This document shows positions 6,040 to 15,377 of a stretch of DNA of 64,000 bases, piece by piece (position 1 is the stretch's first letter; each line of letters begins with the position of its first letter). This DNA is from Waterburya sp. (GTDB lineage Bacteria; Cyanobacteriota; Cyanobacteriia; Cyanobacteriales; Xenococcaceae): contig CBDCJV010000002.1 in assembly GCA_965217895.1 (NCBI GenBank), positions 192,001-256,000 of the forward strand, in the 5' to 3' direction. The notes beneath the pieces were generated by a model. It saw only the letters and a program-made list of their open reading frames with translations. It was not told where the DNA came from and did no database searches. The position numbers and the translations under genes were made by a program.

Positions 6040-6160
6040 TGTGGGCGAAAGAAAAGTGGGCGAAAAGCCCTTCGGGTTCGACATCGGAAAGCATTCCCTT
6101 GCGCCTTCGGACGACGCGGGGTCTCGACCCACCGCAACTGTCTCACCTTTCGCCCCTACA
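6040..6160. repeat. Nested palindromic repeat cluster between convergent serS and thyX
   Basis: GGGCGAA..TTCGCCCCTACA shell (compare 29991-30020). It contains a GGGTTC..CAACTGTCTCACC element, itself interrupted by an inverted GACCCCGCGTC..CAAGGGAATGC element (6091-6123). Confidence 0.7.
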
Positions 6161-6174
6161 GTTATTAACTAACG

Positions 6175-6638
6175 TTATTTCTGTGCGTGAATTGTCCAGG
6201 CTGCCATTGAGACTGGGACAATTGGTTCAATTAACTCAATGATCGCACTGGCATAAGCTCCAATTTCGCTTTGCGCCCCTTTTCCTAAGCGTAAGCCAAT
6301 AAAATTCAAAAGAGCCTGTAAACTGACTGTCCAGACCCAAGACGTATAAACAGAAGGAACTAAAACCCCTCTAGCCTGCTCTCTACCTACGCCCAACTCT
6401 AAAAGCTCAGAATACGCCTGATAGCTATTTTCGCATTGTTCTTGGTATAGGTTGATCGCTTTTTGATTAACTTGGGGCTCTAAACTCCCAAGAGTCGCCT
6501 GTTTATTATTTTTTGACTGCTGCCTAAAGGTAAGAGGAATATAAAATTCGTTACTGTCATCAATTGATACATAGCGAAAACTTTTCTCATTCCAGCCAAG
6601 TTGCTCCTCATTGTGATTACTAGCTATGACGTGCTTCC
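6175..6638 (-). CDS. thyX: Flavin-dependent thymidylate synthase ThyX, exon 2
   Basis: Open frame (W)KHVIASNHNEEQLGWNEKSFRY...GVGREQARGVL...LRLGKGAQSEI. Joined to exon 1 it gives a 717-nt, 238-aa ORF. Confidence 0.93.
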
Positions 6639-7514
6639 CAGTTGTGTTACAAGTAACCCGATGCCGATTACTTTCTTACAGTTTCCTGCAAGCTCAGACT
6701 ATATCATAATCCTTCTATTACAGTTAGGATTCTCCGCGCTTCGAGTTCTCTTAAACCCTACTCCCCAATGGGATAGTCGTTGCGCCTTCCGATGGACTAT
6801 CGGCTTGGCTCAGGATTGCCATATTTTCTGCTTTGTCAACAGACAAACTGTAGGTGTCCCCTGAATTCACGGAGTACGCATCTAGAATTTCTTCTAAATG
6901 GGGCATTGTGTATTTTTCAGTAAGTATGTCAAATTGGATAATTCCCGCTTGTACTAACTGCATAGATATTGACTCTAGCCGATCATGAATTTCTCTATGA
7001 TGACCATTGCTTTGACAAATATAAAGATTGTTAGGCTGATTATTTAGTTTGTCTCCGTCAATGTGGTGAACTCTCTCATGTTTAGTAAGAGGACTACCTT
7101 TTTGAAGTTCTGCGACTAAACGGTGAATTAGACAATACTTGTCTTTTCTACTTGTGTAGTTATGCCCGCGACCCAAATAAACTTCTTTATATCTACTGCT
7201 ATTTATGTATGCTTTACCTATCTCAATCCTGTGCCTAGGTTTTACATTTCCTTTATTCCAAGCAGGTCTACCTTTATTTGCTTTGCCTATAGATCTATTC
7301 TTACAAGTTTTACAGGGGTGTATGTCTGATTCTCGAATCTTTTTAGAATAATTAACAACACGCTCATTCAGACAAATTTCACATCGGAGTTTTACTCGTC
7401 TAGTGTATCTGTATTTACGCTTTGCACCCAAACCCCTTAGAGTTCTTGCATTCTCCAAGATTTCGATGAGCATATTTACACCGTCATACGACACTTACCA
7501 ATCTTACACAGTTT
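6639..7514 (-). mobile_element. Group I intron (IA-like, with P7.1/P7.2) in thyX, carrying an HNH endonuclease ORF
   Basis: Exon 1 ends in U and the intron ends in G. Core elements: P GTGAATTCAGGGGA, Q GGCAATCCTGAGCCAAG, R GGCGCAACGACTA, S GATATAGTC. P3 CTCCGTG/CGCGGAG, P7 GACTA/TAGTC, P9 CTTGCAG-GAAA-CTGTAAG. IGS at 7482-7492 pairs with the end of exon 1. Confidence 0.93.
6751..7494 (-). CDS. Intron-encoded HNH homing endonuclease (start GTG 7494 or ATG 7473)
   Basis: CxxC..CxxC, a KGRPAWNKG (NUMOD3-like) motif and HRLVAE..VHHIDGDKLNNQPNNL..H HNH motif. Confidence 0.85.
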   Translation of the reverse strand: MSYDGVNMLIEILENARTLRGLGAKRKYRYTRRVKLRCEICLNERVVNYSKKIRESDIHPCKTCKNRSIGKANKGRPAWNKGNVKPRHRIEIGKAYINSSRYKEVYLGRGHNYTSRKDKYCLIHRLVAELQKGSPLTKHERVHHIDGDKLNNQPNNLYICQSNGHHREIHDRLESISMQLVQAGIIQFDILTEKYTMPHLEEILDAYSVNSGDTYSLSVDKAENMAILSQADSPSEGATTIPLGSRV

Positions 7515-7767
7515 ACCATTGACGACATACATACAAAGGAGCTTTTACTTTAAATTTAAATACAACTCCACGAAAAGGGCTAGTATGTTCATGTTTGATT
7601 AAATAGTTGATTAGTTTAATATCTTTTTCACCAAGCTTATTAGAAGTCTTTTCAAAAGATGCTCTGGCATCATTCACTATACTTAAATCATTTCCCATAG
7701 AATCAATTAATTCAATTCTACTTTTGCCGTCATTTAAAGGATCTCTTGATATTAGAGTATTGTCCAT
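7515..7767 (-). CDS. thyX: Flavin-dependent thymidylate synthase ThyX, exon 1
   Basis: DPLNDGKS..MGNDLSIVNDARASF..HTSPFRGVVFKFKVKAPLYVCRQW. Lies directly downstream of dcd. Confidence 0.93.
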
Positions 7768-14273: not shown

Positions 14274-14294
14274 GCCTTCGGCTAGCTTCGCAAT
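14274..14294. repeat. 21-bp insert in a HIP1-like site (SDR5-like)
   Basis: Excision restores GCGATCGA and the peptide HSRHRSP. The insert supplies an in-frame TAG. Confidence 0.75.
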
Positions 14295-14625
14295 CGATGG
14301 CGAGAATGTTTGATTTGAGAAATATTTTTGAGTTGGTCATTAATTGTCTCAATAATTGATCGGTGGCGGGATAGAAGTTTGTCATGAAGTCGCATTAATT
14401 TATTCTTCATATTACGTCTGGGTTTAGCAAAAAACTGAATCCCAAACTCTTCGAGCAATTGATTAGCAAGCTTTTGGGAGACATAGCCTCTGTCTGCAAA
14501 AAATTTACCAAAAAGACCTTGAAGCAAGTCAGGAATAGGACGACGATCATCAAAGTTTCCAGGAGTAAGTTGAGCATTTAACAGTTGACCGATCTCGTTG
14601 ACTACTAAGTGGAGCTTAAAACCAT

Positions 14626-14673
14626 CTTGGTGCGCGTTCCCATGCTGGGGAAACCCCAGCGGGGTCGCACCGC
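14626..14673. repeat. 48-bp hairpin insert of a different family in IS982 transposase
   Basis: GGTGCG..CCC..GCTGGGG-AAA-CCCCAGC-GGG..CGCACC. Excision restores DWFYGFKLH. Confidence 0.75.
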
Positions 14674-14747
14674 AAAACCAATCAACCGAAGTTTTACCTC
14701 TTTGAGCTAAACCATCAAAAACTTTGTGGCGTTTAATTCGGCGATTG

Positions 14748-14798
14748 TGACGGTGGGGTATGCTGGGGTTTCCCCAGCTTATACAACCACCGTGTTGA
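14748..14798 (-). repeat. 48-bp TCA-flanked hairpin element, copy 3
   Basis: TCA-AC-ACGGTGG-TT-GTAT-AA-GCTGGGG-AAA-CCCCAGC-ATAC-C-CCACCG-TCA. Excision restores KVCHNRRI. Confidence 0.88.
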
Positions 14799-15377
14799 CA
14801 AACTTTGAGACTAGTAGCATCAACAAAACCAATCCCTGTACAGTTTCCAAAACAACGTTTGAGGTAGACACACAACGGAATTAAAGTTGAAGGAGTCCAT
14901 TCCACAAATCTTTGATAGCTAGGAAGTCCTGGAAAAGCCAAATGCCAATGCTGTTTTACATAGTCAAGATAAAAGTGTTTAAAATTGCGATAGTGATTTT
15001 GATGAAACGCAATTAAAATCGTCATTATTTCACTCAAACAGAGGTTTTTCGCTCTGCGTCTTTTTATTCCGCCATGACTTAGCAACTTCTTTTGCCATTC
15101 AGGTTCAAAAACAAGACAAAAATCGTCTACATCACAAAATAAAGCATCTAAACTAAACATAGGGCAGGTTTACTGAAGAAAGTTGTTATTTTCAGCTTAC
15201 TACCTGTCCTTTTTCTTATCCCGAACTCAGGTTAAGTAATAAAATAAGATGAGGTCTAAAAGGTTGGGTTTTTTCTACCGTCAGAAAGGTGCAAAGATCC
15301 AAAGCTTAATTCTAAGATGAGATTATCCACAGCTTGAATTTTAATTCAAGTCAACAAAGAATGAGGGATAATTAATT

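Follow-up and report, generated by a model that had tools for sequence, protein, structure and literature searches.

A probable phage-type group IA2 intron with an HNH endonuclease gene in the only thymidylate synthase gene found in a Waterburya genome

The only thymidylate synthase gene found in the Waterburya sp. genome, a chromosomal thyX, very likely contains a functional group IA2 intron of phage type; from the sequence evidence we put the probability of this reading at roughly 0.9. The insert is, by its sequence and predicted structure, a group IA2 intron, and it carries an HNH endonuclease open reading frame (ORF). The window is the whole 64,000-nt stretch of DNA that was analyzed, and positions given without a locus name refer to it.

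The split thyX locus

The gene order on the minus strand is dcd followed by the split thyX, with serS downstream in convergent orientation, and the locus lies on a 5.2-Mb contig.

8426-7824, minus strand: dcd (dCTP deaminase), upstream of thyX; Pfam DCD match, E 3e-24
7767-7515, minus strand: thyX exon 1, 84 codons plus 1 nt, its last base being the U of the U.G pair; Thy1 model positions 1-74 and join test
7515-7513, minus strand: in-frame TAA across the 5′ junction, one base from exon 1 and two from the intron
7514-6639, minus strand: group IA2 intron, 876 nt, with a terminal G at 6639 and preceded by exon U
6638-6175, minus strand: thyX exon 2; Pfam Thy1 model positions 82-191

Removal of the intron gives a 238-aa ThyX with the peptide RQWWKHVIAS at the join. 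This peptide is unique to one in-frame join among those scanned near the insert ends, and it is present in all 22 intact (empty) alleles from the genus. The coordinates, 876-nt length, splice sites and terminal G proposed in a first-pass annotation of this DNA are all correct by the join test and the 22 empty alleles, and its 238-aa product with RQWWKHVIAS was reproduced. A TAA or TAG stands at the 5′ junction in every cyanobacterial copy with a readable 5′ end, and T4 td likewise has an in-frame TAA at its junction. The ThyX assignment follows from membership in the Thy1 family and from alignment of the motif with RQWFRHR...SxRY of solved ThyX; an intact near relative (L015) matches a solved ThyX with E 2e-45, in an alignment that spans the motif and contains an 8-aa insert.

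The gap between dcd and thyX is 56 nt with no terminator-like site in it, promoter-like sites at the locus are at chance level, and a dcd motif lies upstream of thyX in 27 of 31 loci. The two genes are probably co-transcribed, although this is a putative assignment from sequence. The earlier description of a chromosomal thyX behind dcd is supported. Two sequencing runs of a single sample, which may be the source sample, gave contigs that bridge both intron junctions; joined (intron-free) thyX was absent from these contigs, which carries no information on splicing.

The genome is 99.89% complete and contains one thyX. The check for thyA or a second thyX that had been proposed earlier was run and found neither in this genome, nor was a thymidine kinase found; ThyA was also absent in all five intron-bearing relatives tested. 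Because thyX is the only copy and neither ThyA nor thymidine kinase accompanies it, splicing should be essential to the host. The first-pass claim that making ThyX would require splicing is supported.

Some features of the surroundings were recorded separately. A small dispersed repeat lies between thyX and serS (window 6051-6170; 27 blastn matches in the genome, 6 of them 60 nt or longer) and coincides with a spike in contig depth, and ORFs judged by eye to be transposase-like, one of them in two frames, occur at 590-1269 and 14282-15160 (both minus strand). The ThyX type here (KH rather than RH, with the 8-aa insert) differs widely from that of the other cyanobacterial families sampled, and the best phage match of an intact thyX allele from the genus is Synechococcus phage S-CBS4, at 51%. 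The thyX gene itself may be a horizontal replacement, judging from sequence comparison.

Ribozyme core and guide sequence

The covariance-model search suggested at the outset identified the core: RF00028 matches 6935-6675 with 79.8 bits (E 1e-18; cut-off 50). All 15 motifs listed in the first-pass annotation are present in the insert, and its P3, P4, P6a, P7, P7.1, P7.2, P8 and P9 hold across 13 homologous introns; P2, P9.0 and P9.1 had been overlooked.

7517-7505, minus strand: P1 5′ strand, comprising exon GGU, intron A1 and the extension 7510-7505
7492-7482, minus strand: internal guide sequence (IGS) proposed earlier, from sequence complementarity only; overlaps the likely HNH-ORF ribosome-binding site at 7485-7479
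6912-6902, minus strand: IGS / P1 3′ strand, just 5′ of P2; IGS 6905-6902, extension 6912-6907
6900-6879, minus strand: P2, 9 bp with GAAA tetraloop
6874-6868/6738-6732, minus strand: P3, core
6865-6785, minus strand: P4-P6a, core
6778-6774/6701-6697, minus strand: P7, core
6773-6762, minus strand: P7.1, core
6761-6759, minus strand: GUA linker joining P7.1 to P7.2
6758-6743, minus strand: P7.2, core
6730-6709, minus strand: P8, core
6694-6693 with 6641-6640, minus strand: P9.0, from covariation
6692-6675, minus strand: P9
6673-6651, minus strand: P9.1; 8 of 8 pairs covary

Assignment to subgroup IA is supported and can be narrowed to IA2, of which P7.1 and P7.2 joined by G-U-A are a mark (PMC3428280). 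The P7.1-GUA-P7.2 of T4 td is nearly letter-for-letter that of the window intron and has the same fold. When the 68 pairs of the window structure were mapped onto 13 aligned homologous cores, 93% of cells were paired, compared with 75% in shuffles and 32-44% in slid controls, and 44 of the 68 pairs change on both sides; these figures are not probabilities, as the introns share ancestry and one of the aligned sequences, the window's, served as the template for the structure. In the 13 rows P3 is 100% paired, with 4 of 7 pairs compensatory, and P7 is invariant. In P2 (73.5% paired) and P9.0 (76.9%), Chloroflexota and phage rows are visibly misaligned, which depresses the values. Both P9.0 pairs show double-sided change in 5 of the 13 rows and are unpaired in 3 (phage rows whose 3′ end is misaligned); the covariation of P9.0 supports the 3′ splice site without recourse to the reading frame.

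The guide sequence is best placed just upstream of P2, where G6904 pairs with exon U7515. The duplex of 7517-7505 with 6916-6901 has a predicted energy of -10.0 kcal/mol, and the P1 extension carries double-sided changes in relatives. Parsing of the IGS was tried on 20 introns and succeeded in 18 (L187 and L056 were not parsed), and in every one of these the base 13 nt 5′ of the GNRA loop of P2 (L2) is a G that can pair with the last exon base, U, giving the same U.G-to-L2 spacing as in T4 td. The next 3-5 pairs covary with the exon sequence, and 16 of 18 introns also keep the +1 pair. The IGS thus tracks the exon: GGU/GCC in cyanobacteria, CGGU/GCCG in Alteromonas-type phages, CUGU/GCAG in Chloroflexota and locus L240, and UGU/GCA in phage pVa5. 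The distance from the splice site to the conserved G varies from 8 nt (L179 and L196) to 610 nt (window), so that all length variation, together with the HNH ORF, lies in L1. In the minimal, ORF-less intron L179 (277 nt), P1 folds as a local hairpin (z -4.3); the P1 of the window has only 3 exon pairs and closes a loop of about 600 nt. P10 with the 3′ exon, an optional element of group I introns, is weak in the window: at its standard position there is a single G.U, compared by eye with 4 bp in the Alteromonas-type introns L057 and L304. A 7-bp IGS found in L040 alone was rejected, as it is not conserved and breaks the 13-nt spacing.

The first-pass annotation placed a U-G wobble at the splice site, and U7515 is indeed its U, but the partner is G6904 and not a base in 7492-7482. 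A working P1 of the exon with 7492-7482, leaving the ORF between P1 and P2, would account for a complementarity of 11 nt that sets a U.G at the junction (-7.8 kcal/mol) and also forms in the local minimum-energy fold, and a change there in the sister copy is compatible with it. That energy, however, is reached by 7.6% of shuffles, which is within chance; the pairing is not conserved and is impossible in L179 and L196, where 8 nt separate the splice site from the conserved G; and about 580 nt would lie between P1 and P2, against the 13-nt U.G-to-L2 spacing of T4 td and 18 of 18 relatives. We regard this placement as very improbable. GAGG-type sites occur in relatives at the same place as 7485-7479, and the helix with 7492-7482 could, from the predicted fold, compete with the true P1.

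Endonuclease ORF and distribution of the intron

The insert had been described as carrying an HNH gene, and profile searches confirm it: HNH_3 matches the ORF above its cut-off (E 6e-8) and phrog_19902 matches with E 8e-34.

7473-6751, minus strand: HNH ORF, 240 aa, in loop L1; start set by alignment with homologues; CxxC...CxxC N-terminus

Residues H136, H137, N145, N149, H159 and H163 are conserved in the window HNH, with catalytic roles that we presume by analogy to I-HmuI; no solved-structure match was found for this protein. Position 94 is Arg, compared with Gly in all 15 other aligned homologues, and the window HNH may be impaired through this Gly94Arg change, as judged from the alignment. 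The sister copy in genome G019 (9 differences in 876 nt, 99% identical) keeps Gly94 and has a nonsense codon in the ORF, and none of the nine genus relatives with a readable L1 region has an intact HNH ORF. Among database protein matches, 23 of 62 are near full-length at 47-61% identity, which indicates that intact copies are common in metagenomes. The last 53 or so codons of the ORF overlap P1 3′ strand through core, with the stop in P7.2, a pattern known as “core creep” (PMC3073962), and the core read-through peptide is present in 31 of 31 top non-self protein matches. Among relatives the core stays paired while the HNH ORF decays; the intron would appear to be kept for splicing.

The closest ORF to the window HNH is the intronic ORF of L198 (48%), and the nearest phage HNHs are 36-41% identical; a scan with the pVa5 HNH returned that protein alone. 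Of 80 viral HNH loci, 11 have a free-standing HNH gene of this family with thyX immediately after it (9 of 29 high-scoring and 2 of 51 low-scoring; L059, L064, L067, L069, L073, L076, L077, L082, L086, L094 and L098), two of which are identical and one of which has thyX in two ORFs. These group together (SH-aLRT 83) in a tree that left out L055 and 43 other rows scoring below 45 bits; a sister relation to the intronic ORFs is not resolved in this tree. Under a collaborative-homing origin, such a free-standing relative would act on the intron's own site.

The survey of occupied and empty sites proposed earlier found the intron core in 12 of 39 genus genomes, and also found phage thyX copies. 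In a pattern scan, a ThyX exon 2 followed the match in 14 of 57 genome matches and 3 of 100 viral matches, and RF00028 recognizes each of these 17. Phase-0 and divergent copies escape the pattern, and some of the 14 genome matches come from genomes already counted among the genus loci. The remaining 43 genome and 97 viral matches are not thyX and are due to chance or to other introns. Among the genomes with a thyX intron are two of Elainellaceae, two of Herpetosiphonaceae (Chloroflexota) and a related one without classification, and the ORFs flanking these genes, read by eye, are housekeeping-like. A DNA search of 401 genomes of the phylum gave, apart from the window itself, only short motif matches; it missed the Elainellaceae copies and is a sample that does not show absence. 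In one metagenome-assembled relative without ThyA (G033; locus L043, 2598-3020), the core is degenerate and the first exon-2 codons carry several changes, a state that would reflect either decay or assembly error.

The best phage HNH matches are also inside split thyX genes, in Alteromonas phage AD45 at the identical nucleotide and in Vibrio phages pVa5 and 1.097.O 1 nt upstream. The phage affinity claimed in the first-pass annotation is supported; no close phage donor was found. In a tree of cores that left out L036 and L184, cyanobacterial cores form one group (99/99) apart from Chloroflexota and phage cores, and the Elainellaceae introns sit among those of the genus at an unresolved fork, with exons 64% identical.

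Mobility, alternative readings and known systems

The sequence beside the intron includes a tract that sets the window apart from its closest alleles.

7965-7515, continuing to about 6610 in exon 2, minus strand: candidate co-conversion tract from the end of dcd through exon 1; foreign-looking

Comparison with the nearest empty allele (L015) gives 46 differences in 220 positions 5′ of the site but only 8 in 176 at +25 to +200; between two empty alleles (L015 and L026) the counts are 10 of 220 and 5 of 176. Exon 1 is 66-87% identical to the three closest alleles in bins of 50-60 nt, and from just past the site to +300 the window is 90-100% identical to the two closest. The foreign tract is mostly 5′ and ends about 29 nt past the site; the window is identical to G019 from -450 to +150. 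This one-sided tract suggests homing. Other mosaic tracts lie nearby, for example at +300 to +400, so ordinary recombination could also explain it. On the exon tree, occupancy requires 7 changes of state, of which well-supported branches force 6, and the three thyX alleles closest to the window are empty. Occupied and empty alleles show only weak clustering on this tree (29-33 of 500 shuffles are as low), and repeated loss explains the pattern as well as repeated gain.

We propose that ribosomes would stop at the TAA spanning the 5′ junction, while the exon end GGU would pair with the IGS 610 nt away, closing the large L1 loop, and the GAAA-capped P2 would position the U.G pair. Guanosine attack, followed by recognition of P9.0 and the terminal G, would then join the exons and restore RQWWKH. 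The HNH would be translated from its own start in L1 and would nick or cut empty thyX near the site, and repair would copy the intron with a long 5′ and a short 3′ exon tract. Translation of the ORF would run through the ribozyme, so that one RNA could be either translated or spliced. One intron family occupies the same codon in marine phages, in Chloroflexota and in two families of cyanobacteria, with the direction of transfer a matter of inference, and within the genus the intron would be gained, decay to ORF-less forms and be lost. A broader scenario, tentative and as a whole rather unlikely, is that this IA2/HNH element owns one codon of the ThyX active-site motif in phages, cyanobacteria and Chloroflexota, having arisen when a free-standing phage HNH that cut thyX, and whose relatives still lie just ahead of uninterrupted phage thyX genes, moved into the P1 loop. 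The element would still home between chromosomes of cyanobacterial species with about 450 nt of dcd-thyX, and reading of the ORF through the IGS and core, with exon pairing over the ribosome-binding site, would set nuclease translation against splicing and so gate the sole dTMP source.

The intron may instead splice without this copy being mobile any longer, as an old resident of the genus, repeatedly lost, with an inactive HNH and a mosaic due to ordinary recombination. The Gly94Arg change, the nonsense codon in the 99%-identical sister, the well-supported cyanobacterial group and the nearby mosaic tracts all fit such a history, which we consider plausible though somewhat doubtful: the tract is mostly 5′ and ends close past the site, like those of Bacillus nrdE/F introns (PMC2504315), the closest alleles are empty, Elainellaceae introns fall among those of the genus despite divergent exons, and all putative active-site residues are kept. 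That the locus is a pseudogene, prophage remnant or mis-assembly with no splicing could draw on the degenerate core and altered exon-2 start of G033. It is, however, the sole thyX, between dcd and serS on a large contig, with both exons intact and both junctions bridged, and the same architecture recurs in many genomes, making that account extremely improbable.

Closely related systems are known. A group I intron with an HNH gene was reported, from an Rfam match, in the “td” gene of Vibrio phage vB_VspP_pVa5 (Katharios et al., 2017; PMC5746245); by its Thy1 match this gene is ThyX. The pVa5 intron has a homologous HNH in the same place (37% identity) and the same core and IGS position as the window, but it is in a phage and not a chromosome, and its insertion is 1 nt upstream, in phase 0. 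In its accessible portion the paper labels the gene td, compares it with ThyA introns and gives no experiment (PMC5746245). Its 279-nt ORF-free size and “57 aa missing” suggest to us that exon 2 was placed about 160 nt too late; both enzyme family and boundaries seem wrong. The novelty claimed in the first-pass annotation is lower accordingly, a homologous-HNH group I intron 1 nt away in a phage thyX being already published. Alteromonas phage AD45-P1 (NC_021532) has its intron at the same nucleotide with a homologous HNH (35%) in L1, but is a phage and carries a second, GIY-YIG ORF after P9 (L057:2430-3730). Its split thyX is annotated as two genes without an intron feature, and our literature search found no publication on it. 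T4 td is a ThyA gene, and its GIY-YIG endonuclease I-TevI lies in a different loop. The DNA polymerase gene of cyanophage Pf-WMP3 has an IA2 intron with the nicking HNH I-PfoP3I, whose ORF overlaps the core as in the window but starts in P6a, in an intron without P2 (PMC3428280). The T4 td, nrdB and Pf-WMP3 introns, all of group IA2, are phage introns.

Chromosomal group I introns are described in nrdE, nrdF and recA of the Bacillus cereus group (PMC2504315) and in cyanobacterial nrdE and thermophilic Bacillus flagellin (PMC3984707). The Bacillus introns share with the one described here phage relatedness, essential DNA-metabolism host genes, patchy occupancy, endonuclease decay and 5′-biased co-conversion, and one recA intron has its ORF in P1, as in the window; the tract is about 450 nt here compared with at most 145 nt in Bacillus (PMC2504315). 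The nrdE/F, recA and flagellin introns differ in host genes and phyla, and the thyX site is used in two phyla. Liu and Yang are said to have described, in 2004, an intein and a group II intron in the Trichodesmium thyX. Splicing in vivo is listed for these elements (PMC4143802); this too is a chromosomal cyanobacterial thyX, but with a group II intron and intein and not a group I intron. Our search of open papers found no group I intron in a chromosomal thyX, and none is described in the accessible portions of PMC10286775, PMC7886860, PMC8541194, PMC6125680 and PMC4649490. A 2025 database holds 42,459 group I introns and may include these, although “thy” is absent from its accessible text (PMC11835236). 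What we consider new is thyX as a host gene for bacterial-chromosome group I introns, of which we found no description, the corrected P1 and an unusually complete natural series.

In reviews, group I introns are listed for only a few protein genes of bacterial chromosomes (recA, nrdE/F and flagellin; PMC3984707, PMC2504315), to which thyX would add another, in two phyla and here on the sole dTMP route. Intact, nonsense, partly deleted, ORF-less and empty alleles, together with a candidate co-conversion tract, show the whole life cycle in one genus, and homing in chromosomes and the movement of introns from phage to host thereby become accessible to experiment. Complementation of a thymidine auxotroph would allow direct selection for splicing. 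Annotation at present reads these split genes as broken thyX.

Other intervening elements were observed along the way. Two genomes of the genus (G016 and G024; L046:2410-4876 and L047) have a group II intron with a reverse transcriptase in thyX after residue 102, with the group I site empty, and five genomes at the order level have ThyX frames of 440-633 aa (L049:1342-2661, minus strand, and L050-L053), of which the one tested carries an intein. The genome that holds the window has a second group I intron, of 274 nt (58.7 bits), which splits tRNA-Arg(CCU) (L054:4811-5090, minus strand; about 4,696,765-4,697,113), and its tRNA-Leu(UAA) is without an intron. Many viral pattern matches outside thyX (L245, L255, L239, L266, L325, L250, L285 and others) have recurrent downstream peptides and, from these sequences, look like group I introns in other phage genes.
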